Assembly (NCBI GenBank): GCA_035517775.1
Contig: DATIYF010000017.1
Span: 14,743-78,742 of the forward strand
Source: Terriglobales bacterium
Lineage (GTDB): Bacteria > Acidobacteriota > Terriglobia > Terriglobales > Acidobacteriaceae
Direction: 5' to 3'
DNA: 64,000 nt
Below the pieces are notes generated by a model, which saw only the letters and a list, made by a program, of their open reading frames with translations, was not told the origin of the DNA and ran no database searches. This document shows positions 16,646-44,979 of this stretch, piece after piece (the first letter of the stretch is position 1; each line of letters opens with the position of its first letter). The position numbers and the translations under genes are program-made.

Positions 16646-16664
16646 GACGGTGTGTCACCGGCGA

Positions 16665-16693
16665 AACTGGCGCAGCCCCCGCCTGCGCCAGTT
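16665..16693 (+). terminator. strong intra-operon stem-loop (11-bp perfect stem AACTGGCGCAG/CTGCGCCAGTT, loop CCCCCGC) between the cupredoxin gene and coxB
   Basis: Read directly. Not followed by a clean U-run (ttcgctgcttc). It could be an attenuator, processing site or mRNA-stability element rather than a full terminator. Confidence 0.35.
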
Positions 16694-16746
16694 CGCTGCT
16701 TCAAGTCGTATACACCAGACAGACAGCCAACTAGAGGCGAAACGCT

Positions 16747-17547
16747 ATGGCCAAGTTGTTTGCCGTGACCATCATCCTTATTGCTATCGCGTCAGCGGTT
16801 CCGATCGTACGCGGCACCTGGACTCAGCCGGTGGATATCTCCACTCATGGCCACTCCATTGACGAGCAGTTCCACGAAACCATGTGGGAGGCCGGGCTGG
16901 CCTTCCTGGCAGCGCAAATCGTCCTCGGACTTTTCATCTGGACCAGCGCCGGCCGGGGCCCCGATGCCCAAATCAAGCGCTTTCCCGGAGGGGCTACGGG
17001 TTTGGTTCTGGCCGCGGTTTTTCTGGTGGGGACGGAAGTGATCGCTTTGGGGATATTCGGCGTCAATGCCTGGGCCCAGGTCTATTTCGCGCCGCCCGGG
17101 CCGGACGCCATGCCCATTCAGGTGCAGGCCGGGCAATTCGCCTTCTACTTTCGCTATCCCGGCCCTGACGGGAAGTTCGGGCCCATTCACCCCGACAAGA
17201 TTGATGAGGCCAACCTGAATTTCTTCGGCCTGGACTATGACGAGCCTGCCACCAAGGATGACATTGTTACCGCCGAGATGGCCATTCCGGTGAACCGGGA
17301 AATTCATTTGCTGATGCACTCCAAGGACCTCGGGCATTCCTTCTATGTGCGCGAGCTGCGGGTGCAGCAGGATTTTGTGCCCGGCCTCGACGTCTCTCTG
17401 CACTTCACGGCCACCAAGGTCGGCAGGTACGAAATTGTCTGTACACAGCTTTGCGGGCTGGGGCATTACAACATGAAGACCTACCTGGAAGTGATGTCGC
17501 AGCAGGATTTCGACGGCTGGCTGAAAAAAGAAGCAGCCATGCAGTAG
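16747..17547 (+). CDS. coxB: cytochrome c oxidase subunit II (CuA subunit, no fused cytochrome c domain)
   Basis: TM helices followed by a cupredoxin domain with CuA ligands HSFYV...CTQLCGLGHYNM. The protein ends 25 aa after the CuA site and contains no CxxCH. Confidence 0.95.
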   Translation: MAKLFAVTIILIAIASAVPIVRGTWTQPVDISTHGHSIDEQFHETMWEAGLAFLAAQIVLGLFIWTSAGRGPDAQIKRFPGGATGLVLAAVFLVGTEVIALGIFGVNAWAQVYFAPPGPDAMPIQVQAGQFAFYFRYPGPDGKFGPIHPDKIDEANLNFFGLDYDEPATKDDIVTAEMAIPVNREIHLLMHSKDLGHSFYVRELRVQQDFVPGLDVSLHFTATKVGRYEIVCTQLCGLGHYNMKTYLEVMSQQDFDGWLKKEAAMQ

Positions 17548-17608
17548 TTACGGCCCTCGCCTGCTCACGCCGCAGGGCGAGGATTTCTGGTTCGCGAGGT
17601 GATGACAC

Positions 17609-29945: not shown

Positions 29946-30338
29946 TCAGCTCGGGTTCTTCAAGGCGGAAAGAATGCTCCTGATCATCTGCAGCAGGTTG
30001 GCCGCTCCCGCTTCCACTCCCAGCTGCGACTTCTCCAGATAACCGGCGGCGCCGCTCTCCTTGAGCTTCGCCTCATTGCTCTGCGGCAGACTGCTCATCA
30101 CGATGACCGGAATCCCGGCGGTGCGCGGGTCCTGCTTCAGCGCCTGCAACAGCTGCAGGCCGGAGATTTTCGGCAGCATCATGTCCAGAACAATCACGCT
30201 GGGAGTCTTGCTTTGCGCCACTCGCAGGCCTTCTTCTCCATCGGCAGCAGAAAAAACTGTATATCCAAACCGCGCAATGGCCATCTCCGTCGCGCGGCGG
30301 ACGAACTTGCTGTCGTCAATGAGAAGCACGGTGCTCAT
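29946..30338 (-). CDS. single-domain response regulator (CheY-like receiver)
   Basis: VLLIDDS, phospho-acceptor context VIVLDMMLPK, conserved VIVMSS. 130 aa with no output domain. Confidence 0.9.
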   Translation of the reverse strand: MSTVLLIDDSKFVRRATEMAIARFGYTVFSAADGEEGLRVAQSKTPSVIVLDMMLPKISGLQLLQALKQDPRTAGIPVIVMSSLPQSNEAKLKESGAAGYLEKSQLGVEAGAANLLQMIRSILSALKNPS

Positions 30339-30478
30339 GGGAATGCTTGAAGTGCTTGCGAGCGAGTGGGGGCCGACGGACGCTGGCTTCTATGCTGGGC
30401 CTGAGGCAGAATGGCATCAAGTTACCAAGGGCGGCGAACCTCCGGGAAGCAAAACTCCGCCCTTGGCGAGGATGGGGC

Positions 30479-30856
30479 TCAGTCGCGGGTGAGGGGAAAA
30501 TTCTTCTCGCGCCAGCCGCGAATGCCGCCATCCATGGAGAGTACGTTGCGATAGCCCATTTTCTGCAGATTGTCGGCCGCCAGGGCTGAGCGGAAGCCGC
30601 CGCCGCAGTACAGCACCAGCGGCGTATCCAGGTTGGGCACGCGGGTTTCGATGTCGCGCTCGATGATCCCCTTGCCCAGGTGAATGGCCCCCGGCAGGTG
30701 ATCAGCGGCATATTCGCTTTCTTCGCGCACATCCACCAGGGTGAATTTATCTTTGCGGTCGAGCCTGTCCTTCACTTCATCGACGTTGGTCTCGCGAATT
30801 CGCTGCTTCGCATCCTCAACAATCTGCAAAAACCGCGGGGAGTGCTGATGCGCCAA
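30479..30856 (-). CDS. rhodanese-like sulfurtransferase domain protein
   Basis: Active-site loop LYCGGGFRS (CxxxxR[ST]). Single rhodanese domain, 125 aa. Confidence 0.85.
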   Translation of the reverse strand: MAHQHSPRFLQIVEDAKQRIRETNVDEVKDRLDRKDKFTLVDVREESEYAADHLPGAIHLGKGIIERDIETRVPNLDTPLVLYCGGGFRSALAADNLQKMGYRNVLSMDGGIRGWREKNFPLTRD

Positions 30857-30974
30857 GGTCCCTCCTTTGGACGTCGAGCGCTGTGTACAAAGCTGCAGCG
30901 CCAGACGAATATAGCCTACCGCAACTGGAGATGACCGTTGCGTGCTAGACTCGGTCTCTCCGCTCTGCGATCAC

Positions 30975-32387
30975 ATGTCTGATCTTCATTTCCTCTCCGC
31001 AGTCGCCATGGCGGAGAAAATTCGCCTCAGGCAGCTCTCTCCCGTTGAACTCATCGAGGCCCATCTGGCTCGAATCGAGCAACTCAATTCCAGGCTCAAC
31101 GCCTACGTGCATGTAGATGCAGAGGGCGGCCGCCGCCAGGCGCTTGCCGCTCAGGAAGCAGTCGCGCGAGCGGCGAATCTGGGCCCCTTGCACGGCGTTC
31201 CGCTGAGCATCAAAGCTTCGATTGACGTGGCCGGCCTGCGCTGCGAAACCGGCACGCGCCTGCGCGCGGGTAATGTCGCGGCGCAAGATGCGCCGCTGGT
31301 TTCGCGCCTGCGGCAGGCGGGCGCTATCATCCTTGGCGTCACCAACACTCCCGAAATGCTGATGGCCTGGGAGACCGACAATCTTCTCTACGGCCGGAGC
31401 AACAATCCCTGGGATCTCGCGCGCACTCCGGGCGGCTCCAGCGGCGGCGAATCGGCGGCCATCGCTTCCGGCTGTTCGGCCGGAGGAGTCGGCAGCGATG
31501 GCGGTGGCTCCATTCGCGTTCCTGCGCACTTCACCGGCATCTGCGGTCTCAAGCCGACTCCGGGCCGCATTCCCGCAACCGGGCACTTTCCGCCCTGCGC
31601 CGGCGCTTTCGCCGGGATTGGCGTGGTCGGGCCCATGGCGCGCACCGTTGCCGACCTGAAGGCTCTCTTCGCGGCGATGCAAGGCCCGGATGATGGCGAT
31701 CCTTCCGCCGCGCCCCTGCCCCTGCGCTGGCCTTCCCAGAGCGAAATAAGAAACATAACGGTCGGATACTTTGAAGACGACGGCCGCACCCCGGTAACCC
31801 CTGAGACCCGCACAGCGGTGCACGCGGCGGCAGAAGCCTTGCGGCACGCCGGCTTCCAGGTCGAACCCTTTCGCCCGGAGACTCTGGAAGAGGCCCGTCA
31901 GCTATGGTGGAAATTCTTCGGCACCGTCGGCGGTATGCTACTGCGTCCCATGTTCCAGGGCCATGAGCCGGAGATGAGCCCGCTTCTCGATCAGTTTCTG
32001 GATTGGACGGCGGCCGAGCCGGCCCACACGGGCGAAAGCCTTCTCGATGCGTGGACCCAGCGCGACTTGCTGCGCATCCAGACTCTGACTCAGATGCGTG
32101 ACCATGCAGTTCTGCTTTGTCCGGTGGCGGCGATTCCCGCCTTCCGCCACGGTGAGCGCAGTTGGGTGATCGAGGGAAAGACCGTGACCTACCTTGACGC
32201 CTGGAGCTATACGGAATGGTTCAACCTGTTGGGGTTTCCGGCAGCCGTCGTGCCCGTTGGGCAATCGACCGAAGGGTTGCCAATCGGAGTGCAGATCGCC
32301 GGCCGCCCCTGGCAGGAAGAGGTTGTGCTCGAAATTGCGGCCGTAATAGAAAAGGAGTGCGGCCCCTGGTGCCGGCCTCCAATCTGA
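30975..32387 (+). CDS. amidase (amidase-signature family)
   Basis: GGSSGGESAAIASG signature and catalytic-Lys context PLSIKASIDVAG. ATG 30975 (MSDLHFLSAVAMAEKIR) is preferred over the GTG 30942 of the ORF track. Confidence 0.88.
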   Translation: MSDLHFLSAVAMAEKIRLRQLSPVELIEAHLARIEQLNSRLNAYVHVDAEGGRRQALAAQEAVARAANLGPLHGVPLSIKASIDVAGLRCETGTRLRAGNVAAQDAPLVSRLRQAGAIILGVTNTPEMLMAWETDNLLYGRSNNPWDLARTPGGSSGGESAAIASGCSAGGVGSDGGGSIRVPAHFTGICGLKPTPGRIPATGHFPPCAGAFAGIGVVGPMARTVADLKALFAAMQGPDDGDPSAAPLPLRWPSQSEIRNITVGYFEDDGRTPVTPETRTAVHAAAEALRHAGFQVEPFRPETLEEARQLWWKFFGTVGGMLLRPMFQGHEPEMSPLLDQFLDWTAAEPAHTGESLLDAWTQRDLLRIQTLTQMRDHAVLLCPVAAIPAFRHGERSWVIEGKTVTYLDAWSYTEWFNLLGFPAAVVPVGQSTEGLPIGVQIAGRPWQEEVVLEIAAVIEKECGPWCRPPI

Positions 32388-32495
32388 TCGCGCTGTGCAC
32401 TGGCGTAGTGTTTTTATACTATTCCGCCAGCCCTGTACTGGCGTTAGCCTTGTAGCCCTCCAGGCGATGGCACTCTGGTTGTCTTCGCTCCGGCC

Positions 32496-35450
32496 GTGGG
32501 GTTCATGAGCGAAATATATAAATCCAAAGGATTTCTTCGCCGGCGCGGGCTGCCCGGGCTGATTGTTTTTCTCTTTCTTTCGGCCATTTATCTGTACGCC
32601 TTCCCGCAGCCCAACCTTATCTATCCAATCGTCGTCTTGTTGCACGTCGCGGCCGGAGTAGTGGCGACGATTCTTCTACTCATTTATCTCGTCAGGCTCT
32701 TGAGGGAATGCGGCCTGCTGGCTCGGCTGGGCTGGCTGCTTTTGCTGGCGGGCGGGATTACCGGCGGCATCCTGATCAAAACCGGCGCCCTGCGGGCCGA
32801 CTGGAACCTTCTGTACGCCCACATCGTCATCTGCCTCGCGGCAGTTGGCTTTTTGTTCGCCGAGTGGGCCGGCCGCCGCGGCTGGCTGGCGCCGGGCCTG
32901 GTCCGAGCCGCTCTCCGAACCGTCCTCTGCATGGTGTTCCTTGCAGGGCTGGGCGCCGGCGCGCAGTATTTCCGCAAGGCGCGCTGGCTGAACAGCGCCA
33001 TCATTCACAATCCACCCGATTCGCCCGCTACCATGGATGGCGAAGGCGATGGCCCCAAAGGCCCCTTCTTCCCCAGTTCCGCCCAGGTCTATGGCGGGCA
33101 GAAAATTCCCAGCCAGTTCTTCATGCAGTCCGATTCCTGCAAGCGCTGCCACCAGGACATTTACAACCAGTGGTTCAGCTCCGCCCACCACTTTTCTTCT
33201 TTCAACAATCAGTGGTACCGCAAGGCGGTGGAGTACATGCAAGCCACCGTGGGCACCCGGCCCTCCAAGTGGTGCGGCGGCTGCCATGACCCGGCAGTGC
33301 TTTACGCCGGCAAAATGGATACTCCCATCAAGTACTTCGTGCACAGCCCCGAGGCGCAAGCCGGTCTGGGCTGCATGATGTGCCACTCGATCGCCCGCGT
33401 GAAGAGCACCATGGGCCAGGCGGATTTCTACCTCGAATATCCCGAGCTGCACGCCCTGGCCGCCAGCAAAAATCCCGTGGTACGCTTCATGCACGATTTT
33501 CTGGTCAAGCTGAATCCTGAGCCGCACCGCCGGGTGTTCCTCAAGCCCTTCATGCGCGATCAGACCGCCCAGTTCTGTGCCAGCTGCCACAAAGTCCATC
33601 TCGATGTGCCGGTGAATCATTACCGCTGGGTCCGGGGCTTCAACGAATACGACAACTGGCAGGCCAGCGGCGTTTCCGGGTTCGGCGCGCGTTCGTTCTA
33701 CTATCCCGCGCATCCCATGCAGTGCGCCGATTGCCATATGCCCCTGGTCCGCTCCAGTGATTTCGGCAACATCAACGGCTTCATTCACTCCCACCGTTTT
33801 CCGGCGGCCAACACCGCCGTTCCCACGGCCAATGAAGACTGGAAGCAACTGAAGGTGGAAGAGGATTTCCTGAAGAATGACATCCTGAGCGTGGATATCT
33901 TCGCGCTCTCTCCCGAGCCCACTCCCCTCAAAGTGAAGGCCAACGCCTACAGCCCCTCGGAACTCTCCACCACGTTCGGTGTAGGCGAAGAATCCGAATC
34001 GAAGATCACTCCCGTAAATGTGGGTGAGATTGCCCCGATCACCGCTCCCCTTGACCGCGTTCAGCCCATCGTGCGCCGTGGGGATAACGTCCGCGTAGAT
34101 GTCGTCGTGCGCACCAAGAAAATCGGACACTTCTTCCCCGGCGGCACGGTGGATGCCTTCGACGTATGGCTTGAACTCAAGGGCACCGACGACAAAGGCC
34201 AGACCGTTTTCTGGAGCGGCGAGGTGGAAGATAACGGCCACGGTCCGGTCGAGCCCGGCGCCCACTTCTACAAATCGCTGCAGGTGGATGCCCACGGCAA
34301 TCCCATCAACAAGCGCAACGCCTGGGCCACGCGCTCGGTCGTGTACGTGCACCTCATCCCGCCCGGCGCGGCCGATACCGTGCACTACCGCATGCACATT
34401 CCGGAAAAAGCCGGCGACAAGATCACCCTTCACGCGCGTCTCTGCTACCGCAAGTTTTCCTGGTGGAACACGCAGTTCGCCTTCGCCGGGGTTCCCGATC
34501 CCAACCAGACTCCGAGGCCGGAAGTCACGCCGAACTTCGACGACAGCAAGTTTGTCTTTACCGGGCCGCTGCAAGGCTTATCTGCCAAGGAGCAGAAAAT
34601 TCCCGATCTTCCCATCGTCGCGTTGGGCGAAGATACGGTTACGTTGAACGTTGCTCCGCAAAATGCTCCGGCGCCGCAGCCCAAGGTGGTGATGACCAAA
34701 GAAGACTGGCATCGCTGGAACGACTACGGCATTGGCCTGCTGCTTCAGGGTGATCTCAAGGCGGCGCAGGCGGCCTTCGTGAAAGCCACGCAAGCCGACC
34801 CCAACAATCCCGATGGCTGGGTGAACATTGGCCGGGCCATGGTGCAGGAAGGCGATATGGAGCACGCCCGCGCCGCCCTGCAAAGAGCCTTAGCTCTGAG
34901 CCCCAATCTCGCCCGCGCCCATTATTTCTATTCGCGGGTTCTGCTCAGCGAGGGCCGCTATGACCAGACGGCCGCCGAGTTGCGCACGGTGCTGGCGCAA
35001 TATCCTTATGACCGCGTGGTCCTGAACGACCTGGGCCACGTTCTGTTCTTGCAGCGCAAGTACGCCGAGGCCGTGCAGACCCTGAACCGCGTACTGGCCA
35101 TTGATCCCGAAGACCTGGAGGCGCATTACAACCTGATGCTCTGCTACAAGGGGCTGGGCGATGAGAAGGACTCTCAGGCTCACGAAGTCCGCTATTTACG
35201 CTTCAAGGCCAACGAAGCAGCGCAGGCGATCACCGGTCCTTATCGCCAGACCCATCCCTTCGATAACAACGAGCGGCAGGCCATTCATGAGCACCTTTCC
35301 GTGCCGTTGCCGATTCTTGCCTCCGCCTATACCGAGCAGATGGAAAAACCTGCGCCCATGCCCTCGTATTCACGTACCACCCACGCGCCTCATAAGCGCC
35401 GCAATCCGGCATACTCGAAGATCATCCTGCCTTCCGGGGCCTCCAGGTAA
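32496..35450 (+). CDS. membrane-anchored pentaheme c-type cytochrome with C-terminal TPR domain
   Basis: About 5 N-terminal TM helices. Five CxxCH motifs (CKRCH, CGGCH, CMMCH, CASCH, CADCH). C-terminal TPR repeats (AHYFYSRVLLSEGRYDQTAAELRTVLAQYP..., AHYNLMLCYKGLGD). Confidence 0.85.
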   Translation: MGFMSEIYKSKGFLRRRGLPGLIVFLFLSAIYLYAFPQPNLIYPIVVLLHVAAGVVATILLLIYLVRLLRECGLLARLGWLLLLAGGITGGILIKTGALRADWNLLYAHIVICLAAVGFLFAEWAGRRGWLAPGLVRAALRTVLCMVFLAGLGAGAQYFRKARWLNSAIIHNPPDSPATMDGEGDGPKGPFFPSSAQVYGGQKIPSQFFMQSDSCKRCHQDIYNQWFSSAHHFSSFNNQWYRKAVEYMQATVGTRPSKWCGGCHDPAVLYAGKMDTPIKYFVHSPEAQAGLGCMMCHSIARVKSTMGQADFYLEYPELHALAASKNPVVRFMHDFLVKLNPEPHRRVFLKPFMRDQTAQFCASCHKVHLDVPVNHYRWVRGFNEYDNWQASGVSGFGARSFYYPAHPMQCADCHMPLVRSSDFGNINGFIHSHRFPAANTAVPTANEDWKQLKVEEDFLKNDILSVDIFALSPEPTPLKVKANAYSPSELSTTFGVGEESESKITPVNVGEIAPITAPLDRVQPIVRRGDNVRVDVVVRTKKIGHFFPGGTVDAFDVWLELKGTDDKGQTVFWSGEVEDNGHGPVEPGAHFYKSLQVDAHGNPINKRNAWATRSVVYVHLIPPGAADTVHYRMHIPEKAGDKITLHARLCYRKFSWWNTQFAFAGVPDPNQTPRPEVTPNFDDSKFVFTGPLQGLSAKEQKIPDLPIVALGEDTVTLNVAPQNAPAPQPKVVMTKEDWHRWNDYGIGLLLQGDLKAAQAAFVKATQADPNNPDGWVNIGRAMVQEGDMEHARAALQRALALSPNLARAHYFYSRVLLSEGRYDQTAAELRTVLAQYPYDRVVLNDLGHVLFLQRKYAEAVQTLNRVLAIDPEDLEAHYNLMLCYKGLGDEKDSQAHEVRYLRFKANEAAQAITGPYRQTHPFDNNERQAIHEHLSVPLPILASAYTEQMEKPAPMPSYSRTTHAPHKRRNPAYSKIILPSGASR

Positions 35451-37141
35451 TGCGCAAAACCGCACTCTGCTTTCTAGCCCTGCTGCTCGCGGCGCCGCTT
35501 GCTTTCGCGGGTGAAATCCAGTTTCGCGAGATCACCACTCAGGCCGGCATTCACTATCGCCACAACACTGGCGCCTTCGGCAAAAAGTATCTCCCCGAAA
35601 CCATGGGCCCGGGCTGCGCTTTCATTGACTACGACAATGATGGCTGGCCCGACATTCTGATGGTCAACGGCGAGAATTGGCCCGGCCATCCCGGCCCCCT
35701 CACCACGCTCAAGCTCTACCACAACAACCACGACGGCACCTTTACCGACGTCACTGCCAAAGCCGGCCTTGCGGTTCCGATGTTCGGTCTCGGCGTGGCC
35801 ATAGGCGATTACGATAACGACGGCTTCGACGATATTTTCGTCACCGCCGTCGGCCAGAGCCATCTCTTTCACAACAACGGCAATGGCACATTTACCGACG
35901 TCACCAAAGCCGCCGGACTGTGGGGGCCGAACGAATTTTCCACCAGCGCCGCCTGGCTGGATTACGACCGCGATGGCAAGCTTGACCTCATCGTCGCCAA
36001 CTACGTGCAGTGGTCCATGAAGGGAGATCTCTTCTGCACTCTCGACGGCACGCACAAATCCTATTGCACTCCTGAATCCTACAAAGGCACGTCGGTGCGC
36101 CTGTGGCACAACCTGGGTGGGGGAAAATTTGAAGACGTCACCGCCAAAGCCGGACTCTACGACCCTACCTCCAAAAGCCTGGGCATCACCATTCTCGATT
36201 ACAACAATGACGGCTGGCCCGATATTTTCATCGCCAATGACACCCAGCCCAACAAGCTCTACGTAAACGAAAAAGACGGCGCTTTCGAGGAAACCGCGGT
36301 CTCGGCCGGGGTCGGCTTCAGTGAAGATGGCGTGGCCCGGGCCGGCATGGGGGTGGATGCGGCCGACTACGACCGCTCCGGCCACCCCAGCCTTATCATT
36401 ACCAACTTCGCCAACCAGATGCTCTCGCTCTACCACAACGAAGGCAACGGGTTGTTCGTGGATGAAGCTCCGCAGTCGGAAGTGGGCCGCGCTACGCTGG
36501 TCACCCTGGGCTTCGGCTGCTTTTTCTTCGATTACGATAACGACGGCTGGCCCGATATTTTCGTCGCCGACGGACACATCGAAAACCAGATTGAAGAAGT
36601 GCAGAAGCGGGTGAAATACGCCGAGCCGCCGCATGTGTTTCGTAATCTCGGCGGCGGCAAGTTCGCCGAGGTCACCGATTCGCTGGGGGCGGCTTTCGCC
36701 TCTCCGAAAGTGGCGCGGGGCGCCGCTTACGCCGATATTGACAATGACGGTTTTCTCGATATTCTGCTCACCACCAACGGCGGCCCGGCGCATCTCTTCC
36801 ACAGCGAAGGCGGAACCGATCGCAGCCTGCGCATCAAGCTGGCGGGCACGAAATCGAATCGGGATGGCATTGACTCCCTGGTGCACGTGGTGGCCGGCAA
36901 AGATGGCGAGTCGAAGATGCTGCGCAGCGGCTCCAGTTATCTCTCCCAAAATGAGCTGGTGTTGACCTTCGGCCTGGGCACGCACGCCAAGGCCGACAGC
37001 GTGGAGGTTTACTGGTCGAGCGGCCACGTGGATAAACTTTCCAATGTTGATGCCGGCCAAACCGTCACCATCGAGGAAGGGAAGGGCATCGTTTCTTTGC
37101 GGCCCTACAGCACGCCCTGGTCATTTGCCGATAAGAAATAG
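35450..37141 (+). CDS. secreted FG-GAP/VCBS-repeat beta-propeller protein with UnbV/ASPIC C-terminal domain (CRTAC1-like)
   Basis: Signal peptide ALLLAAPLAFAGE. Seven DYDNDGWPDI-type repeats. ASPIC-like LRIKLAGTKSNRDGIDSLVHV...SGSSYLSQNELVLTFGLG. The start overlaps the upstream stop (TAATG). Confidence 0.88.
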   Translation: MRKTALCFLALLLAAPLAFAGEIQFREITTQAGIHYRHNTGAFGKKYLPETMGPGCAFIDYDNDGWPDILMVNGENWPGHPGPLTTLKLYHNNHDGTFTDVTAKAGLAVPMFGLGVAIGDYDNDGFDDIFVTAVGQSHLFHNNGNGTFTDVTKAAGLWGPNEFSTSAAWLDYDRDGKLDLIVANYVQWSMKGDLFCTLDGTHKSYCTPESYKGTSVRLWHNLGGGKFEDVTAKAGLYDPTSKSLGITILDYNNDGWPDIFIANDTQPNKLYVNEKDGAFEETAVSAGVGFSEDGVARAGMGVDAADYDRSGHPSLIITNFANQMLSLYHNEGNGLFVDEAPQSEVGRATLVTLGFGCFFFDYDNDGWPDIFVADGHIENQIEEVQKRVKYAEPPHVFRNLGGGKFAEVTDSLGAAFASPKVARGAAYADIDNDGFLDILLTTNGGPAHLFHSEGGTDRSLRIKLAGTKSNRDGIDSLVHVVAGKDGESKMLRSGSSYLSQNELVLTFGLGTHAKADSVEVYWSSGHVDKLSNVDAGQTVTIEEGKGIVSLRPYSTPWSFADKK

Positions 37142-37167
37142 CCCGCGGGCGGTATGGCGCAGAAAAG

Positions 37168-37196
37168 CTCTGTGCCCTCCGCGCCCTCTGTGGTTA
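37168..37196 (-). repeat. copy of dispersed AACCAC-(CRRAGG)n intergenic repeat
   Basis: The reverse complement reads aaccacagagggcgcggagggcacagag. It lies between the stop at 37141 and the likely true start at 37211 of the next gene. Confidence 0.6.
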
Positions 37197-37210
37197 AATT
37201 CCTTCTGCCA

Positions 37211-40200
37211 ATGATTTCCCGAAGCGCTCTGCTGATCGTCATTCTGTCGCTCGCCGGTATTTTTGCCGCTGGCCCGCAAGCCGCCAAGCCCGCCGACCCC
37301 GCCGAGGCCGCCCGCCTTAACAACCTGGGCACGGCTTACATGAACCAGCAGCTTTTCGAGAAGGCGCTGAAAGCTTTCCAGGACGCTGCTGCGGCCGACC
37401 CAAAGCTGGAAATTGCGCAACTGAACCAGGGAATCGCTCTGCTCAATCTAGGCAAGATCGAGCCGGCCAAGGCGATTCTTGAGGCCGCTGTCAAAGCTTC
37501 TCCCGGCGATCCGCACGCCTGGTACAACCTGGCCATGCTTTACAAAAACACCAGCGCCACAGAGGCCGCGGAGAGCGCCTTCCAGCGCGTACTCGCCATT
37601 GACCCCAATGACGCTGACACCTGGTACTTCCTGGGAACCGTCTTTTCCCAGCTGCGCCAGTTTCCCCAGGCGATTGACGGCTTCCATCATGCCCTCGCCT
37701 TGAATCCGCTGCACGCCTCTGCCGAGTTCGGTCTCGCTCGCGCCTTGCAGCAATCCGGCGACGCCACCCAGGCTCGCGAGCATCTGCAACGCTTCCAGCA
37801 CATCACGCAAGACAAATTGGGTTCGCCCATCAGCCTGGCCTACGGCGAGCAAGGCAAGTATTCGCTCGCCGAGCAATCGCCCCTGGCGCCGCAGAGAGTC
37901 CTGCCCGAGATTCCTGTCAAGTTCATAGATGTCACGCGTGAGAGCGGACTGGCGACTGCAGCAGCTCCTTCCTCAGGTTTTGACTTTACCTACCTCGGCC
38001 CCGGCGCCTGCTTCCTGGATTATGACGGCGACGGCTCGATTGATATTTTTCTTCCCGGCGGCGGGTCGCAGGGAGGCATGTCTCTCTATCGCAATCTGGG
38101 CAACGGCAAGTTCGAAGATGTGACCAGGCAGGCCGGACTCGATCCTTCCCTTCATGGCCTGGGATGCGCTGCCGGCGACTATGACAACGACGGCTTTCCC
38201 GACCTTGCCGTAACTGCAGAAAGCCGCATTTTTCTCTTTCACAACGAAAAAAATGGCAGCTTCAAGGATGTTTCCGGGCAAGCGGGGGTAATTCCTGCCG
38301 GCGCGTCTTCCGCGAAATCTGAAGTCGAAGCTGTCGGCGTTACATTTGTTGACTACGACCATGATGGCGATCTCGATTTATATGTGACCAGGTCCGCCCC
38401 AGCTAAGTACCGGGCGTCCTCGGGCCACACGGGTTACAACATCATGTGGCGCAACAACGGCAATGGCACGTTCACCGACGTGACCGATTCCGCCGGCTTG
38501 TCGGGCAACAGTTCGAGCGTCGCCGCCGTGGGCACGGACTTCAACAACGACCGCGCGGTTGATCTGGTGGTGACGGGTTGGCCCAAGGGAACTACGCTCT
38601 TCGAGAATCCGCGCGAGGGCACTTTCAGGCAGGCGGAGCTCTGGCCTGCCCACTCGCCCTCGCAAGCCCGGGGCGTTGCTCTGCTTGATTTCGATCACGA
38701 TGGCTGGATGGACCTTGCCATCACCAGCGAAGACGCGCCCGCTCTCACTCTTTGGCGTAACCACCAGGGCACGAGCTTCGAGCCGGCAAGCCTGCCCGAT
38801 CCCCACTGGCTCCGCGCCTTTGGAGTTGCCGCTTTCGACTACGACAATGACGGCTGGGTGGATCTTGTCGCGGTTGGCGAGACGAAGGAAGGCAAAGGCG
38901 AAGCCCACCTGTTCCGAAATCTCGGCCGCGGCGGATTCAAAGACGTCACTGCCGAGGTCGGCCTCGACAAGATCAAATTGCAGGACCCTCGCGCCATCAT
39001 CACCGGCGACTTGGACAATGACGGCGCCACCGATCTGCTCATCACGCAGAGCCGGGGTCCGACCGTGCTTCTGCGCAACCAAGGCGGCAACAAGAACCAC
39101 TGGCTTCGCCTGGCGCTGACAGGCCTCAACGACAACAAGAGCGCCATCGGCACGAAAGTGGAAGTCTTCTCCGACGGCATTCGGCAGAAGTTTGAGGTCG
39201 CCGGTTCCTCCGGCTATCTCGGCGCGAACTCGCCGTATTTGACCATCGGCCTCGGCCAGGCCAGCCAGGCTGAGATCCTCCGCATGCTCTGGCCCTCCGG
39301 CGTTCTGGAAGATGAAGTCGAAGTCGCCGGCCTGCGCCAACAGTCTTTCACTGAACTCGACCGCCGCGGCAGCTCCTGCCCCACATTATTTGCCTGGAAC
39401 GGCGAGCGCTACGAGCTCGTCGGCGACATGTTGGGCGCCGGCGTCGTGGGTCACTGGATCGGCCCCCACCAGCGCGACATTCCCCGCCCCGTCGAATACA
39501 TGAAGATCAATCGTGGCGCCATCCGCGAGAAAAATGGAAAGCTCAGCTTCCGCTTCATGGAGCCTCTCGAAGAAGCTGTTTATCTCGACCAGGTAAACCT
39601 GCTCGCCGTGGACCATCCTGCCGGCCTCGACGTCTATCCCAACGAATACTTCGCCGACAATCCGCCTTATCCGGAATTCAAAGTCATTCTCAGCCGCAAT
39701 GCCCGTCCCCCCGCGGGTGCCTGGGATGGCGCCGGCCACAACGTCTTGCCTGACCTTCTTGCCCATCGCTACATCGGCGGCTTCGACCTGTTGCCCTTCA
39801 AGGGATTCACCAAACTCCACAGTCTTGAGCTCGATCTCGGCCAGCCTTACGATCGCGGCCCGCTCTGGCTGCTCATGCACGGCGAAATCGAATACTTCAC
39901 CGCCACGGGAATGTATGCCGCCTGGCAATCCGGCCTCGAGCCCATCTCGCCCTATGTGGAAGCGCTAGGCGCAGATGGAAAATGGCGGAAGGTCGTCAAC
40001 GACCTCGGTTTCCCCGCCGGCGGACCACGCACCATGACCGCCGACCTTACCGGCAAGCTGCCGCGCGGCACGCGGCGCATCCGCATCTGGACCAATCTGC
40101 AGATTTACTGGGATAGCATTCTGATTGACCGCGCCAGCCAGAAGCTGCCCGTTCGCCTGACCCCGCTTCCGCTCACCCACGCCCAGCTTGACTTTCACGG

Positions 40201-40663
40201 TTTCCCGCTGAAAATCGAAGGCCACCCTCCCGGCAATGTCAAATACATTTATGAGCAGGCCAGCGCCACCGGCCCCTACACCCGCCCGGCAGGACTCTAC
40301 ACTCGCTATGGCAATGTGCTGCCGCTTCTGACCGCCCGCGACGACCGCATGGCCGTTTTCGGCTCCGGGGATGAAGTTGCCTTGGAGTTCGATCCTGCAC
40401 ATCTTCCCGCGCTGCCCAGCGGCTGGGTGCGCGACTACTTCTTCGCCGCCCACGGATATGAAAAAGATATGGACTTCTACGCCGCCGAGGGAGAAACCGT
40501 GCGCCCGCTGCCCTTCCGCAAGATGACCGGTTATCCTTATCCCGCGCGCGAGAGCTTTCCGCTCACGAGTTCTTACCTCGACTATGTTCTTAACTACAAC
40601 ACCCGCTACATGTCGGGCAAAGAGGCGCGAGGATACTCCTTCGACTATCCTTCCGCAAAATAG
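37211..40663 (+). CDS. secreted TPR + FG-GAP/VCBS repeat + UnbV/ASPIC protein with large C-terminal extension
   Basis: Start moved to ATG 37211 (MISRSALLIVILSLAGIFAAGPQA is a signal peptide), because the ORF-track N-terminus (37154) is encoded by the intergenic repeat. TPR repeats, DYDNDGFPDL-type repeats, ASPIC-like LRLALTGLNDNKSAIGTKVEVF, then ~470 aa of unassigned domain. Confidence 0.85.
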   Translation: MISRSALLIVILSLAGIFAAGPQAAKPADPAEAARLNNLGTAYMNQQLFEKALKAFQDAAAADPKLEIAQLNQGIALLNLGKIEPAKAILEAAVKASPGDPHAWYNLAMLYKNTSATEAAESAFQRVLAIDPNDADTWYFLGTVFSQLRQFPQAIDGFHHALALNPLHASAEFGLARALQQSGDATQAREHLQRFQHITQDKLGSPISLAYGEQGKYSLAEQSPLAPQRVLPEIPVKFIDVTRESGLATAAAPSSGFDFTYLGPGACFLDYDGDGSIDIFLPGGGSQGGMSLYRNLGNGKFEDVTRQAGLDPSLHGLGCAAGDYDNDGFPDLAVTAESRIFLFHNEKNGSFKDVSGQAGVIPAGASSAKSEVEAVGVTFVDYDHDGDLDLYVTRSAPAKYRASSGHTGYNIMWRNNGNGTFTDVTDSAGLSGNSSSVAAVGTDFNNDRAVDLVVTGWPKGTTLFENPREGTFRQAELWPAHSPSQARGVALLDFDHDGWMDLAITSEDAPALTLWRNHQGTSFEPASLPDPHWLRAFGVAAFDYDNDGWVDLVAVGETKEGKGEAHLFRNLGRGGFKDVTAEVGLDKIKLQDPRAIITGDLDNDGATDLLITQSRGPTVLLRNQGGNKNHWLRLALTGLNDNKSAIGTKVEVFSDGIRQKFEVAGSSGYLGANSPYLTIGLGQASQAEILRMLWPSGVLEDEVEVAGLRQQSFTELDRRGSSCPTLFAWNGERYELVGDMLGAGVVGHWIGPHQRDIPRPVEYMKINRGAIREKNGKLSFRFMEPLEEAVYLDQVNLLAVDHPAGLDVYPNEYFADNPPYPEFKVILSRNARPPAGAWDGAGHNVLPDLLAHRYIGGFDLLPFKGFTKLHSLELDLGQPYDRGPLWLLMHGEIEYFTATGMYAAWQSGLEPISPYVEALGADGKWRKVVNDLGFPAGGPRTMTADLTGKLPRGTRRIRIWTNLQIYWDSILIDRASQKLPVRLTPLPLTHAQLDFHGFPLKIEGHPPGNVKYIYEQASATGPYTRPAGLYTRYGNVLPLLTARDDRMAVFGSGDEVALEFDPAHLPALPSGWVRDYFFAAHGYEKDMDFYAAEGETVRPLPFRKMTGYPYPARESFPLTSSYLDYVLNYNTRYMSGKEARGYSFDYPSAK

Positions 40664-40664
40664 G

Positions 40665-40678
40665 CCTTCCTTGTGGTT
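40665..40678 (-). repeat. weak, truncated copy of the AACCAC-(CRRAGG)n repeat just after the stop codon
   Basis: The reverse complement reads aaccacaaggaagg. Confidence 0.35.
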
Positions 40679-40750
40679 CCTTCATTCTTTCTTACGGAAT
40701 CGTTTTAACATTGACAATTTCCCGTCCCCCATAATCCAATAACCGGACGC

Positions 40751-42103
40751 ATGGAAACCCAAACCGCGTCGTCCCCGGCTCCGCGCCTTCGCCGTTCGCT
40801 CACTCTTTCGGATCTCATTCTCTACGGCGTCATCGTCATTCAGCCGGTGGCGCCCATGTCGGTCTTCGGCGTGCTCAGCGAGCGCGGCCGCGGCCACGTG
40901 GTCACCACCATTCTGATTGCAATGATCGCCATGCTCTTCACCGCCATCAGTTACGGCCGCATGGCGCGCGTCTATCCCAGCGCCGGCTCCGCCTTCACTT
41001 ACGTCGGCCAGGAGATCAACCCCGCCCTCGGCTACGTCACCGGCTGGAGCATGGTCATGGATTACATGCTCAACCCCCTGATCTGCATCATCTGGTGCAG
41101 CGGCCAGGCGCACGTTTTCGCGCCCGGCATTCCCTACTGGGGCTGGGCGATCTTCTTCGGGGTGGTCTTCACCGCTCTCAATATTCAGGGAGTCAAGACC
41201 TCGGCCCGCGTAAACTCGGGGCTGGCGGTGGGCATGGGCGTGGTCATCACCATCTTCTTTGTCGCCGCCGCGCGCTACATTTTTGGCCATCCTCATGACG
41301 GTGCGGCTTTTTTCACGCGCCCTTTTTACGATCCCCAGATGTTCGACGCTCGCGCCGTGCTCGGCGGTACGTCACTTGCCGTCCTCACCTACATCGGTTT
41401 CGATGGCATCTCTACTCTCTCCGAAGAGGCGGAGAACCCTCGCCGCAACATTCTGCTCGCCACTGTGCTCACCTGCCTGACCATCGGAATTCTTTCCGCC
41501 ATCGAGGTCTACGTCGCACAGCTTCTGTGGCCGGCCTCGCAACCCTTCCCGAACGTGGATACCGCCTTTACCTTCGTGGCCGGGCGCGCCTGGCCGCCGC
41601 TGTTCGCCATCGTCGGCTTCACGCTGCTGGTGGCCAACTTCGGCTCGGGCATGGGCGCGCAACTCGGCGCGGCCCGCCTGCTCTATGGCATGGGCCGCAG
41701 CGGCGCCCTGCCGCGCTCATTTTTCGGAGTGGTGGACCCTAAACGGCATGTGCCCCGCAACAATGTGATCTTCGTTGGCGCTATCGCTCTGGCGGGGGCG
41801 TTTCTCATCACTTACGGCCTGGGGGCTGAGATGCTCAACTTCGGCGCGCTCATCGCCTTCATGGGGGTCAACGCCGCTGCTTTCGTCCACTACTTTCTTC
41901 GTGGCGCGGAAAAGAAAATTACCCACCTCGTGCCGCCGGTCGCCGGATTTCTCATTTGCCTGCTGCTCTGGCTGAACCTCAGCCGTCCCGCTAAAATCGC
42001 CGGCGTCATCTGGATGGCCGCGGGCATCGCCTTCGGCGCCTGGAAGACTCGCGGCTTCCGCGGCGATCTGGTGAATTTCGATTTGCCGCCTGAAGAAGTC
42101 TGA
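40751..42103 (+). CDS. APC-superfamily amino acid/polyamine permease
   Basis: 450 aa with ~12 TM helices. N-terminal LTLSDLILYGVIVIQPVAPM is typical of APC transporters. Confidence 0.88.
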   Translation: METQTASSPAPRLRRSLTLSDLILYGVIVIQPVAPMSVFGVLSERGRGHVVTTILIAMIAMLFTAISYGRMARVYPSAGSAFTYVGQEINPALGYVTGWSMVMDYMLNPLICIIWCSGQAHVFAPGIPYWGWAIFFGVVFTALNIQGVKTSARVNSGLAVGMGVVITIFFVAAARYIFGHPHDGAAFFTRPFYDPQMFDARAVLGGTSLAVLTYIGFDGISTLSEEAENPRRNILLATVLTCLTIGILSAIEVYVAQLLWPASQPFPNVDTAFTFVAGRAWPPLFAIVGFTLLVANFGSGMGAQLGAARLLYGMGRSGALPRSFFGVVDPKRHVPRNNVIFVGAIALAGAFLITYGLGAEMLNFGALIAFMGVNAAAFVHYFLRGAEKKITHLVPPVAGFLICLLLWLNLSRPAKIAGVIWMAAGIAFGAWKTRGFRGDLVNFDLPPEEV

Positions 42104-42240
42104 CCCGGGAGGGCGCGGCCGGGAGGGCCCGACTTCAGCCGGGCCAACAACAAACCCCGAACAAGCTGTCATTCCGAGCGCAGCAGAAATCTGCTTTCCT
42201 TGCGCAAATGCCACTTCAATCGCCAATCAGCGATCCTCTC

Positions 42241-44979
42241 TCACTCCACATTCCACCCGCTTACCTCGACCACTGGCTTCGCCCCGCGTAGCGCAGCAGC
42301 GCTATAGGTTGCCGTGATCACCCGCTTCTCTCCCGGCAGCAGCGAGAAATAATTGTCCTGCCAGATCACGGGCAAAATCTCTTCTCCCTTCTTGCCCGTC
42401 ATCCACAAGTAGGTGGTTTGGTTTCCGCTGGCGAGCGGCAGCATGCTCTCATCGGCGCCCCGATCCACTTTCAGCCGCACCAGAAACGCCAGGCTCGCGC
42501 CCGGGTTCTCTACCGTCACCTGCGTGACCCCATCATCCCCCTGCCGTTCCGTGCGGCTGCTGACCTTCAACTTCACCTTGGGCAGCTGCGAGAGCGCCGT
42601 AAAATCCGCGTAAGCAGTAACCGGCGTCATGTACCAGGTGGATTTCGCCCAATCCAGTGTCTCCGGCTTAGTGGAGAGCCAGTAGAAATTCGATCCCACC
42701 AGCTTGCCGCTCGCGTCGTTCAGCCGCAGCGCCAGAAAATAGGTGGAACTCAAATCCGCAATCTCCGGCAAAACGAAAATCCTGCTGCTGCTGTCGGCCG
42801 GCGCGTCGAGCTCCGCCTCCCTGGAAAACTTCTCCGTCATATCCAGGTTGTAAACCTTTGCCGTCAGCTTCAATTCTTTGGCGTCTTCGTACTGGCTGCT
42901 CACCACCCAGATGGCATGATCGTCGTAACCATAGAGCGGATGCAGTGCCTCCATTGCCTTCTTCGCGCCGAAATAGCCCCCGCCCGGCCGCAGATAGAAG
43001 TCATACAAATGCCAGATCAGCGACGGCCAGGCATTGTTCAGCATCCACTGGATTACGCCCGTCGAGGTGTACTTGTTGCGGCTGTAGGCCTCGTACATGG
43101 CGCGCACGCCTTCGTAAGTCATCGCCTGCGACTTCATGGCGAAATCCGGCGCGCTCTGCGCCTGGCCGTAGCGGGCGTTCAGGGCATCAGCAAAGACGTG
43201 GATGTCTTTGAAGGCTCCCCCGCCGGCATGAAAGTTCCACCAGTCGTCAATCGGCCACAGGTGCTCCTTGCCCAGCATTGTCTCCAGGCTTTCGACCGGC
43301 GGCACCGCCGGCCCCATGCTGGTTTCGGTATTAAAGCCATAGCCGCCGCCGCACCCGCCCAGGTTGCAGGTATCCTGCGGATGCGAGCCCATCGCATCCT
43401 CTTCCCAATAGTCCGGCGGCACGTAGCCGTAGGGTCCGGTCATCTTCACCCCACTGTTTCCTGTCACCGAGGTAGGCTTGGCCGTGGCCGAGGAAATCGT
43501 CGGGTTCGGCCACATCAGTTCTTTCTCCACGTTCAAATACGTCTGCTCCACATCCGGCGGCGGCGGATTGTCGCTTCCGTTCAGCCATACCAGCAGGCTG
43601 GGATGACCACGCAGCCGGTAAATCTGGTCCCGCAGCGACTGCTCCGCAATCTTGAAATCGGCCGGCTTCCAGTTCGGCCAGTGCTCCCAGTGCGAGCAGC
43701 AGACCCAGCCCGCCATCACCAGAATTCCTTCGCGGTCGGCAGTGTTGAAAAATTCCTTCCGCTCCAGGGTGCCCTCCAGGCGAATCGTGTTCAGTCCCAT
43801 GTCCTCCACGTAGCGGAATTCCTCCTGCATGCGCCGGGAGTTTTCACGCAGCAGCATGTCCGGCGCCCATCCCCCGCCGCGGATCAGAATCTTCTTCCCG
43901 TTGATGGAGAACAGCCGGTGGGTGTTGGCATCGAGCTCTGAGGTGATTTCCCGAATGCCGAATTGCGTCTCGGAGCGGTCCGAGACCGCGCCCTCCGCAT
44001 CCACTTCCAGGTTGAGCCTGTAAAGCTCCGGCTTGCCCATCTGCGCCGGCCACCACAGCCGCGGATGGCTTACATTGAGCTGAGGAAATTGCTCCGGCGT
44101 AAAGCTCACATCCTTCGCCTCGCCGGGCGCCAGCGCGATCTCCTGCGAGAACTGAATGTCGCCAAGCGCGCCTTTCAGGGTGCCTTTCACGGTCTGGTCC
44201 GTACCGTTCTTGAGCAGCGCGGTGACCGTCAGGTGCGCCTCATCATTCGCCGGTGAATCCACCTTGGAAATCACCGCCGGATAGCGCAGCGCCACTGGCC
44301 CGCTGGCCACGATCTCGACCGCCCGCCACAGTCCCATGTTCTTGTCCGGCGGCGCCGGGTTCCAATCCACAAAATTGGTCGCAAGATCATCAGGCAGCGG
44401 TGAAAATACCTCGACTGCGAGCACATTGGCTTTTCCAACGGTCACAATATCGGTGATGTTGAATTCATACGTGCGCCAGGCCCCCGCGGCCTCGCCGATG
44501 TTCGCGATCTGCTTCCCGTTCAGCCAGATGTTGGCCCTATAGTTGATTCCGCCAAAGTCAAGCCAGATCACCTTGCCGTGGTCGCTTGCCGGCAGCTCGA
44601 ACCTCTTCCGGTACCACCACGGCACCATGAACGGGCTGTCCTGGGCCATGGCGATGTTCGAAAAATTGGCCCCGATGGGATAGGTCACGCCGGGGAAGGA
44701 GCGCAAATTCATGCCGAAGTCAGGGTCGGGATAAACCTTGTCTTTCACCAGCGCCGCCAGCACGGTGGTGGGTACGCTGGCGGGATACCATCCCTCGGGC
44801 TGAAATGCGGCCGTCGAAATCGTCTCGCCTTTCTGCTCCACTTTGCAGGAAGACTGCAACTCCCACCCCTCGCCCAAGTTCAAAGAAGCCGCTGCCTGGG
44901 CGTGTTGGGCCGGTCTCTGGGCAAGGGCAGGGAAGCAAGCAAGAATCAGAAACAGCAGCGGCAGTTTGCGTTTGAGCAT
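42241..44979 (-). CDS. glycoside hydrolase family 2 protein (exo-beta-D-glucosaminidase / beta-mannosidase-like)
   Basis: Signal peptide. GH2 sugar-binding-domain motifs WWYRKRFELP and NIWLNGKQI. TIM-barrel segment NTIRLEG...WLNGSDN. 912 aa. Confidence 0.85.
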   Translation of the reverse strand: MLKRKLPLLFLILACFPALAQRPAQHAQAAASLNLGEGWELQSSCKVEQKGETISTAAFQPEGWYPASVPTTVLAALVKDKVYPDPDFGMNLRSFPGVTYPIGANFSNIAMAQDSPFMVPWWYRKRFELPASDHGKVIWLDFGGINYRANIWLNGKQIANIGEAAGAWRTYEFNITDIVTVGKANVLAVEVFSPLPDDLATNFVDWNPAPPDKNMGLWRAVEIVASGPVALRYPAVISKVDSPANDEAHLTVTALLKNGTDQTVKGTLKGALGDIQFSQEIALAPGEAKDVSFTPEQFPQLNVSHPRLWWPAQMGKPELYRLNLEVDAEGAVSDRSETQFGIREITSELDANTHRLFSINGKKILIRGGGWAPDMLLRENSRRMQEEFRYVEDMGLNTIRLEGTLERKEFFNTADREGILVMAGWVCCSHWEHWPNWKPADFKIAEQSLRDQIYRLRGHPSLLVWLNGSDNPPPPDVEQTYLNVEKELMWPNPTISSATAKPTSVTGNSGVKMTGPYGYVPPDYWEEDAMGSHPQDTCNLGGCGGGYGFNTETSMGPAVPPVESLETMLGKEHLWPIDDWWNFHAGGGAFKDIHVFADALNARYGQAQSAPDFAMKSQAMTYEGVRAMYEAYSRNKYTSTGVIQWMLNNAWPSLIWHLYDFYLRPGGGYFGAKKAMEALHPLYGYDDHAIWVVSSQYEDAKELKLTAKVYNLDMTEKFSREAELDAPADSSSRIFVLPEIADLSSTYFLALRLNDASGKLVGSNFYWLSTKPETLDWAKSTWYMTPVTAYADFTALSQLPKVKLKVSSRTERQGDDGVTQVTVENPGASLAFLVRLKVDRGADESMLPLASGNQTTYLWMTGKKGEEILPVIWQDNYFSLLPGEKRVITATYSAAALRGAKPVVEVSGWNVE

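Follow-up and report, generated by a model that had tools for sequence, protein, structure and literature searches.

Three consecutive genes in the 64,000-nucleotide stretch of Terriglobales bacterium contig DATIYF010000017.1 analyzed here (hereafter, the window) encode an inner-membrane cytochrome with five c-heme motifs and two FG-GAP propeller proteins of the CRTAC1/ASPIC-UnbV kind, and our sequence comparisons give good support to the view that cytochrome and propellers work as a functional unit, an extracytoplasmic redox machine. The feature is real and its parts are ordinary; the system that they form is conserved and widespread and has no description in the literature that we searched, and, judged by the comparisons below, the three-gene arrangement is far beyond chance. 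Our preferred reading, to which we give a probability of roughly 45%, is that the three genes form one operon for a periplasm-facing, quinone-linked redox complex of the cell envelope. Positions of open reading frames (ORFs) are window coordinates throughout, and all three genes lie on the plus strand, spanning 32496-40663:

32496..35450, plus strand: gene 1 (CYT), inner-membrane pentaheme c-type cytochrome (ORF, Pfam, NCBIfam, AlphaFold2 model)
35448..35452, plus strand: TAATG stop/start overlap of genes 1 and 2, reading ccaggTAATGcgc (sequence)
35450..37141, plus strand: gene 2 (PROP), secreted seven-blade FG-GAP propeller with UnbV_ASPIC, CRTAC1 family, 563 amino acids (aa) (ORF, Pfam)
37154..40663, plus strand: gene 3 (P3), tetratricopeptide repeats (TPR), seven-blade FG-GAP propeller, ASPIC, and C-terminal domain (ORF, Pfam, AlphaFold2)

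The evidence that carries this conclusion is, first, the gene neighborhood of the cytochrome's relatives. We surveyed 60 loci over three tiers defined by identity to gene 1 (tier A, 50 to 73%, about 950 to 1000 aa; tier B, 37 to 46%; tier C, 29 to 35%, about 700 to 770 aa), together with the best 80 ortholog loci (close orthologs) from species-representative genomes, scored the ORFs of each locus with pieces of the three window proteins, and limited the counts to the 131 loci with enough flank. A propeller gene stands beside the cytochrome gene in 124 of these 131 loci, even at about 30% identity:

Tier A: propeller at most 300 bp downstream in 18/20 loci; anywhere in the flank in 18/20
Tier B: propeller at most 300 bp downstream in 16/19 loci; anywhere in the flank in 19/19
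Tier C: propeller at most 300 bp downstream in 9/20 loci (directly upstream in 4 more); anywhere in the flank in 17/20
Further orthologs: propeller at most 300 bp downstream in 57/72 loci (at 450 to 620 bp in 11 more); anywhere in the flank in 70/72

The start of the propeller gene often overlaps the stop of the cytochrome gene, and the pair persists while the flanking genes change completely between orders. This synteny extends over three paralogous tiers, about 60 families of the phylum, and one Bacteroidota-labeled contig. An earlier, sequence-only reading of this DNA had raised the doubt that the gene order might be limited to close relatives; the neighborhood survey found the pair down to ~30% identity and in all three tiers. 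The redox-linked extracytoplasmic machine proposed in that reading stands as far as the coupling of cytochrome and propeller is concerned, on the grounds of synteny, hemes, and partner clade, but does not extend as a rule to the third gene (TPR, propeller, and C-terminal domain), which lies beside the pair in only 52 of the 131 loci and in some of these precedes it or has the opposite orientation. The conserved core is the cytochrome-propeller pair only. The particular roles suggested in the same reading, namely, oxidation of an extracellular substrate as a form of processing and transfer of electrons to bound ligands, are speculative.

Two variants of the arrangement were seen along the way. 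On the Bacteroidota-labeled contig (L142, 7159-12466), the cytochrome and propeller genes are convergent; there, a GH16 gene overlaps the cytochrome start by 4 nt, and beyond lie genes for a TPR protein, for a LacI regulator, and for a ThuA/GSDH/CBM6 protein that carries a type-IX secretion tail. The context is thus one of carbohydrates. In a 'gp2'/Acidoferrales-type group (L086, L090, L092, L093, L095, L096, L099-L101, L104, and L105), two propeller genes bracket the cytochrome, and the 450- to 620-bp gap before the downstream propeller could hold a small unscored ORF.

The second line of evidence is partner specificity. The window's own genome (4.47 Mb) carries 17 ASPIC/propeller genes, and maximum-likelihood analysis groups gene 2 and the other propellers that accompany tier A and B cytochromes into a single clade (support, 100/100); of the 15 further paralogs from this genome that the tree contains, 13 fall outside the clade. 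The partners of tier C form a separate clade (100/100), and tier labels are far more clustered in this tree than in shuffles. Because the partner clades are tier specific, the pair is best read as having been duplicated and inherited as a unit. TPR-only genes lie within 1.5 kb of 10 of the 17 propeller genes, and one more propeller, that of gene 3, is fused to TPRs. Since so many pairings occur despite only 27 TPR-only ORFs in the whole genome, we take the TPR-propeller combination to be a general unit, to whose TPR arm gene 1 appears to add a redox module.

Three of the other propeller loci deserve mention in their own right. One paralog (contig C95, 9052-10758) falls inside the cytochrome-partner clade and has a TAT-like signal, with neither a cytochrome nor a TPR gene adjoining. 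On contig C119 (543-10564), a second ASPIC/propeller gene (7802-9529, minus strand), also with a TAT-like signal and in a clade other than that of gene 2, immediately precedes a 571-aa ORF with 16 CxxCH motifs, a 438-aa ORF, a 377-aa ORF with 4 CxxCH motifs, and two exported ORFs; this cluster may be related to the HZS-like/CRTAC1 clusters of PMC12758564. On contig C46 (25036-33223), an ASPIC gene (25036-26871) and a pair of neighboring multiheme ORFs (8 and 7 CxxCH) stand 2.4 kb apart, separated by an opposite-strand membrane gene.

The anatomy of the cytochrome itself, as predicted at high confidence by AlphaFold2 (pLDDT 89.6, pTM 0.88), is as follows:

32532..32990, plus strand: five-helix membrane domain, aa 13-165 (hydropathy, AlphaFold2 model)
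33138..33737, plus strand: five heme-c attachment motifs, inside an alpha-helical heme domain of about aa 200-460 (motif scan)
33138-33152, plus strand: heme-c motif 1, CKRCH, aa 215
33273-33287, plus strand: heme-c motif 2, CGGCH, aa 260
33372-33386, plus strand: heme-c motif 3, CMMCH, aa 293
33576-33590, plus strand: heme-c motif 4, CASCH, aa 361
33723-33737, plus strand: heme-c motif 5, CADCH, aa 410
33885..34655, plus strand: Ig-like beta-sandwich, aa 464-720 (model secondary structure; the top Foldseek hit, 5ZE8, covers heme and sandwich domains)
34698..35276, plus strand: TPR arm, aa 735-927, then a disordered tail (Pfam TPR families, helical repeats in the model)

The protein counts 984 aa from a GTG start or 981 aa from an alternative ATG three codons in, at 32505, and contains no in-frame UGA. 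Pfam matches Cytochrome_C554 at aa 214-298 (E 1.3e-7) and TPR repeats at aa 740-900 and gives no match in the beta-rich stretch between them, where G544-H545 (in a GHxFPxG motif) is near-invariant. The description given from the sequence alone, a 984-aa protein with ~5 transmembrane (TM) helices, five CxxCH motifs, and C-terminal TPRs, was thus borne out by ORFs, hydropathy, model, and Pfam. After the TPR arm (window 35277-35447, aa 928-984) comes a moderately conserved His-rich motif, with the consensus RRxHPxxNxExxxxHxH and 52 to 66% conservation of H920, H931, and H933, followed by the disordered tail.

All ten Cys and five His of the heme motifs are invariant in the aligned relatives (61 and 66 sequences, down to 24% identity), with motif 1 taking the form Cx4CH in some of them, so that the possibility, raised beforehand, of heme motifs not conserved in orthologs can be set aside. 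Outside the motifs, H231, H344, and H433 are invariant and H545 is 98% conserved; K366, N374, Y385, D386, and M415, near the motifs of hemes 4 and 5, are invariant or almost so. Because four conserved nonmotif His stand against five hemes, one of the c hemes may have a non-His distal ligand or none. The best Protein Data Bank (PDB) match of the model in Foldseek is 5ZE8, the pentaheme c552 of Thermochromatium tepidum (E 1.6e-8, TMt 0.62, 552 columns), other top matches being TPR proteins; a profile of aa 171-740 run against the PDB likewise retrieves 5ZE8 (E 2.1e-10), followed by cytochrome c554 (2e-4) and the polysulfide reductase MccSep (5.6e-3), and the NCBIfam ExtKL model (NF040886) gives a sub-threshold match around heme 1 (E 1.4e-5). 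Because the Foldseek and profile searches both lead to 5ZE8, the periplasmic core of gene 1 is, by model and profile, assigned to the PHC fold. Of the two remote-homology searches that the sequence-only reading had proposed, the one with the heme domain thus found its match, whereas the one with the C-terminal domain of gene 3 matched nothing.

The membrane domain would offer the link to the quinone pool. Its helices span aa 13-35, 42-71, 74-96, 100-127, and 135-165 (hydropathy and AlphaFold2 model), with the N terminus in the cytoplasm and the C terminus in the periplasm according to the positive-inside loops, and they contain two candidate ligands:

32643..32645, plus strand: His50, TM2, candidate heme-b ligand, 8 residues from the periplasmic end; 98% of 54 relatives, invariant in A4
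32820..32822, plus strand: His109, TM4, candidate heme-b ligand, 9 residues from the periplasmic end; 96% of 54 relatives, invariant in A4

Over the 54 relatives with a multi-helix N terminus, on which TM-domain conservation was counted, H50, G54, G90, and H109 are 96 to 98% conserved. The positive-inside rule and the model put H50 and H109 at equal depth near the periplasmic face, and because this is what a bis-His site would be expected to look like, the two likely form one for heme b. In tiers B and C, a second His pair occurs near the cytoplasmic face, at +18 in TM2 and +14 in TM4, and the pairs are distributed as follows:

Tier A: periplasmic-side pair only, 96/101; both pairs, 1/101; none, 4/101
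Tier B: periplasmic-side pair only, 0/19; both pairs, 17/19; none, 2/19
Tier C: periplasmic-side pair only, 0/16; both pairs, 9/16; none, 7/16

Both pairs are thus present in 26 of the 35 proteins of tiers B and C together, and the pairless proteins of tier C have a single membrane anchor only. Heme b binding has been demonstrated for DUF4405, a domain with four conserved His (10.1101/2024.03.13.584918), and the Pfam model of this domain (PF14358) weakly matches the TM domains of 3 of 12 relatives (best E, 7.1e-5), below a curated-quality call. In DUF4405-type cytochromes, the four His lie in TM helices as two bis-His heme sites, a pattern that the two His pairs of the deeper paralogs resemble. 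The window clade looks like a derived form in which the cytoplasmic-side site was lost and the periplasmic-side site kept. On this view, the deeper paralogs, with two putative heme-b sites, could transfer electrons across the membrane, and the window clade would work from a periplasmic quinol site only.

Gene 2 encodes a protein with a Sec-type signal peptide (aa 1-20, ..APLAFA|GE), six FG-GAP_3 stretches in Pfam (E 1.2e-53), seven DxDxDG loops counted by eye, and an UnbV_ASPIC domain at aa 473-540 (E 2.6e-16), both Pfam matches being above the cut-off. In agreement with this, the TAATG coupling of the cytochrome to a 563-aa secreted seven-repeat FG-GAP protein with ASPIC, already claimed from the sequence, was confirmed by sequence and Pfam. 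Conserved residues of the propeller, in a comparison confined to propellers with a cytochrome neighbor, are LPE-MG, H38, Y185, M300, H376, and R423. The 1-nt overlap joins gene 2 to gene 1; the gap to gene 3 is 12 to 69 nt, depending on the start of the latter.

Gene 3 is 1169 aa long from its first ATG (37154) and 1150 aa long from the ATG at 37211, which is likely the true start because it gives a clean signal peptide and agrees with the N termini of homologs. Its product comprises an N-terminal signal peptide or anchor, TPRs (aa 43-220), a propeller (aa 256-656), and an ASPIC domain (aa 664-733, of which Pfam matches 664-719), with FG-GAP seven times and above-cut-off Pfam matches to FG-GAP_3 (E 8.1e-51) and UnbV_ASPIC (E 1e-12). 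Its AlphaFold2 model (pLDDT 80.2) has murine CRTAC1 (9ETN) as the top Foldseek match (E 1.4e-22, TMt 0.70), followed by integrin alpha chains and fungal FG-GAP lectins. The protein ends in a domain that we call CT3:

39356..40660, plus strand: CT3, all-beta C-terminal domain of gene 3, 435-440 aa (about aa 730-1169) (model, invariant columns)

The TPR/FG-GAP/ASPIC architecture that the sequence-only reading had attributed to a 1150-aa protein is therefore correct, and the C-terminal domain that it put at ~470 aa measures ~440 aa. CT3 is present once in its own genome and has as invariant residues S741, C742, P743, E807, D812, H889, W944, Y985, W986, R1051, K1104, and D1107. It has no match in Pfam (single sequence; 9 members) or in a profile search against the PDB, and in Foldseek searches with the whole gene 3 model, the CRTAC1, integrin, and TPR parts dominate the matches.

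How might such a complex work? In our preferred reading, gene 1 would be the membrane-bound electron-transfer subunit, made up of the five-helix domain, the PHC-type domain with its five c hemes, the beta-sandwich, and the TPR arm. The five-helix domain would hold one b heme, ligated by His50 and His109 close to the periplasmic side of the membrane, and exchange electrons with the menaquinone pool; electrons would then pass between the b heme or quinone pool and the chain of five c hemes, with the Ig-like sandwich supplying a further conserved His. The product of gene 2 would be a dedicated, secreted, calcium-type propeller partner, probably held in contact with the cytochrome by the TPR arm; this propeller probably binds a substrate close to the hemes and might take part in its conversion. 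Gene 3 would be an optional accessory, contributing a second TPR-propeller unit and a beta-domain. Electron flow would connect quinol/quinone and a periplasmic substrate, in either direction. Going one step further, the system might be a widespread respiratory-type enzyme of soil bacteria, in which a CRTAC1 propeller would either bind the substrate or act on it catalytically and five c hemes plus a b heme would connect this subunit to the quinone pool, an idea that we put forward tentatively and regard as possible rather than probable.

Several observations weigh against this reading. Some relatives (L013, L051, and L143) have no propeller neighbor; a distant relative that lacks one lies inside a polysaccharide-synthesis cluster. 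The neighbors give no consistent hint of a substrate (amidase, permease, and GH2 here; GH16 elsewhere), and a cofactor site is not evident in the propeller. The TM domain of the window protein itself has no DUF4405 match and keeps only two of the four His. Finally, because one clade has a single anchor and no His pair, the quinone link is, on the sequences compared, not universal.

These points leave room for other explanations, the strongest of which, although still unlikely, is that the cytochrome is itself the enzyme, with one active c heme, and that the propellers capture, present, scaffold, or anchor. Its PHC-fold core speaks for this, as MccSep uses heme 2 as the catalytic center within that fold, and so do the four (near-)invariant nonmotif His (H231, H344, H433, and H545) for five hemes and the (near-)invariant Y385, D386, K366, M415, and N374 by the motifs of hemes 4 and 5. 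However, the idea of an open heme derives from a count of conserved His, the model having been built without hemes, and a dedicated propeller clade that co-diversifies with the cytochrome would be left unexplained. Polysulfide chemistry of the MccSep type can be excluded for gene 1 because neither catalytic residue, Cys239 or Sec/Cys325, has a conserved counterpart: the Cys that lie elsewhere than in the heme motifs (C72, C113, C145, C650, and C883) each reach a conservation of at most 30%.

Clearly less probable is a conduit that would exchange electrons, in either direction, with insoluble or polymeric partners outside the cell, such as Fe/Mn minerals or humic quinones, with the propellers and TPR units bridging the periplasm. 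A membrane multiheme cytochrome with weak matches to the MtrC/MtrF domain (23.9 bits against a cut-off of 30) and of the GSU2203/ExtKL type would fit such a conduit, as would the cytochrome c/oxidase operon elsewhere in the window and the other ASPIC gene, on contig C119, which immediately adjoins the 16-heme and 4-heme ORFs described above. Yet no gene for an outer-membrane beta-barrel or cytochrome was found in or beside the operon, none for a barrel recurs in the 141 surveyed loci, and no known design spans the envelope with five hemes and a propeller.

We consider it very unlikely that the system is nonrespiratory, serving either MauG-like maturation or cross-linking of the propeller or redox sensing for a TPR/propeller scaffold. 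Cytochrome-free TPR-propeller pairs are commoner in the window's own genome, so the cytochrome could be an add-on, and databases name its homologs only after TPR proteins such as TadD and PilF; but these names, and the pilus or secretion role that goes with them, were rejected as deriving from the TPR repeats alone. A five-heme chain and a membrane His pair exceed what a maturation enzyme or sensor usually needs, and Pfam finds no signaling domain in gene 1. Strongly disfavored, lastly, is mere inherited gene order without functional coupling: close relatives do keep the flanking housekeeping genes (amidase, permease, and SurA-like) syntenic as well, but these flanks change beyond the order, whereas the pair is kept to about 30% identity and in each of the three paralogous tiers, the stop of one gene often overlapping the start of the other, and its partner clades track the cytochrome tiers.

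The operon lies among ordinary genes: upstream is that of an amidase, and those downstream encode an amino-acid permease, a GH2 hydrolase, and a SurA-like chaperone. One further element lies between the amidase gene and the operon:

32390..32411, plus strand: terminator-like hairpin and T-run directly after the upstream amidase gene (consensus scan, pattern match only)

Because of this hairpin, the cytochrome operon is suggested to be transcribed separately from the amidase gene. The latter (window 30942-32387), a cytoplasmic protein of the generic amidase-signature type, adjoins the operon of the cytochrome in 33 of the 92 loci of tier A and was not found in tiers B and C. Three arrangements occur: the amidase gene precedes the operon in the same orientation, is divergent from it, or follows the propeller gene. 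This association could reflect a shared function or just synteny within the lineage, and we rejected the amidase as a system component, being cytoplasmic, generic, hairpin separated, and linked only within Terriglobales-like genomes. A sigma-70 promoter candidate before the permease gene (TTGACA/CATAAT, 40711-40735) was rejected for its 13-nt spacer. Pfam gave no match on antisense ORFs, and no Rfam family matched over 30000-42500.

Elsewhere in the window, positions 13648-19381 hold genes for cytochrome c, a CarboxypepD_reg-containing protein, COX2, and COX1, together with a 445-aa ORF that Pfam does not match. Another extracytoplasmic redox module in the same 64 kb, as supposed from the sequence, is thus real: cytochrome c, COX2, and COX1 at 14993-19381.

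The cytochrome family is large. An exhaustive search with aa 1-740 of gene 1 returned 3219 clusters at 50% identity (E <= 1e-3), 778 of them at E <= 1e-30, and a word-based search with gene 1 gave at least 7983 homologs among the best 8000 candidates. Named homologs are Terriglobales/Acidobacteriia 'tetratricopeptide repeat protein' entries, and in an even sample of the phylum, 104 of the 301 Acidobacteriota genomes, representing 79 of the 186 genera, have a relative. Cluster names add labels from Bacteroidota (42% identity), candidate division KSB1 (45%), and Thermoanaerobaculia. Five metagenome-assembled genomes (L074, L096, L097, L100, and L111; 4.4 to 5.7 Mb) with 60 to 70% identical orthologs are labeled Verrucomicrobiia, Saccharimonadales, Binatia, or Dormiibacterota; either these labels are probably mistaken, that of Saccharimonadales above all, or the contigs were mis-binned, and we did not count such implausible labels (Saccharimonadales, Dormiibacterota, Binatia, and Verrucomicrobiia) as other phyla.

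The pairing is of interest on several grounds. CRTAC1/ASPIC-UnbV propellers are abundant in Acidobacteriota, with 17 in this 4.5-Mb soil acidobacterium genome, and we know of no bacterial member with a known function; the human homolog, CRTAC1, serves as a disease biomarker. The cytochromes (3219 clusters; about a third of sampled Acidobacteriota genomes) are annotated merely as 'TPR repeat protein' or 'TadD.' The pairing provides the first testable lead to the function of bacterial CRTAC1 proteins and a concrete redox hypothesis for dominant soil bacteria, and the split between clades with one and two heme-b sites predicts a measurable biochemical difference. If true, a propeller-cytochrome enzyme would give the CRTAC1/ASPIC superfamily, including human CRTAC1, its first biochemical context.

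Among known systems, the closest to the core of gene 1 is the PHC family proposed in PMC11976967, which comprises ExtKL/MccSep, Gsu2801, and the sPHC/lPHC of cable bacteria. PHC-type cytochromes such as 5ZE8 share with gene 1 an alpha-helical N-domain with five c-heme motifs followed by an Ig-like beta-sandwich. They are, however, soluble proteins of 400 to 450 aa, whereas the core of gene 1 is fused to a five-helix membrane domain and a C-terminal TPR arm; the propeller gene pairing and the membrane His pair also set gene 1 apart from the known members. The one characterized enzyme of the fold is MccSep (GSU2937-2936, ExtKL; PDB 9wt8/9wt9), a multiheme selenoprotein polysulfide reductase from Geobacter sulfurreducens that reduces polysulfide at heme 2 with a heme-ligating Cys239 and Sec/Cys325 (10.1101/2025.11.18.688581). 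MccSep follows the same 'five-heme cap plus Ig-like stem' plan and is weakly similar in sequence near heme 1, but it is a soluble homotetramer without TM domain, TPR arm, or propeller partner, in contrast to the five TM helices of gene 1.

The membrane part recalls the inner-membrane b/c-type multiheme quinol oxidoreductases of Geobacter and Shewanella (CbcL, ImcH, and CymA/NapC-NirT). With these and the DUF4405 cytochromes, gene 1 shares a His-bearing domain of TM helices fused to periplasmic c hemes, and it differs in its partner, which is a CRTAC1 propeller instead of a periplasmic cytochrome relay. In Pfam and NCBIfam, gene 1 matches neither the NapC/NirT nor the HydC/FdnI families, and NapC/NirT proteins (CymA) have a single N-terminal TM helix and a tetraheme domain where gene 1 has five TM helices. 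Porin-cytochrome conduits of the MtrCAB/PCC type need genes for a beta-barrel and an outer cytochrome, neither of which is in the operon or the adjoining genes.

On the propeller side, genes 2 and 3 share with CRTAC1/ASPIC-UnbV proteins the order of an FG-GAP propeller followed by UnbV_ASPIC. Animal CRTAC1 adds a C-terminal EGF-like calcium-binding domain; neither gene 2 nor gene 3 has a Pfam EGF match, although bacterial proteins bear the family name without it. Both genes stand together with a cytochrome gene, and gene 3 adds TPRs and the novel 440-aa beta domain to the CRTAC1 plan. Full-text literature searches found no description of a pairing of this cytochrome with a CRTAC1 propeller, the nearest published case being the hydrazine synthase (HZS)-like gene sets of non-anammox Planctomycetota, Syntrophobacter, and Paludibaculum, in which a CRTAC1-family gene lies between two heme-protein genes (PMC12758564). 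The HZS subunits have no homology to the gene 1 protein. Periplasmic redox enzymes that combine a beta-propeller with c hemes include, besides HZS, the quinohemoprotein amine and alcohol dehydrogenases and cytochrome cd1. They provide our working analogy, in which the propeller would take care of the substrate or cofactor and the c hemes of the electrons.

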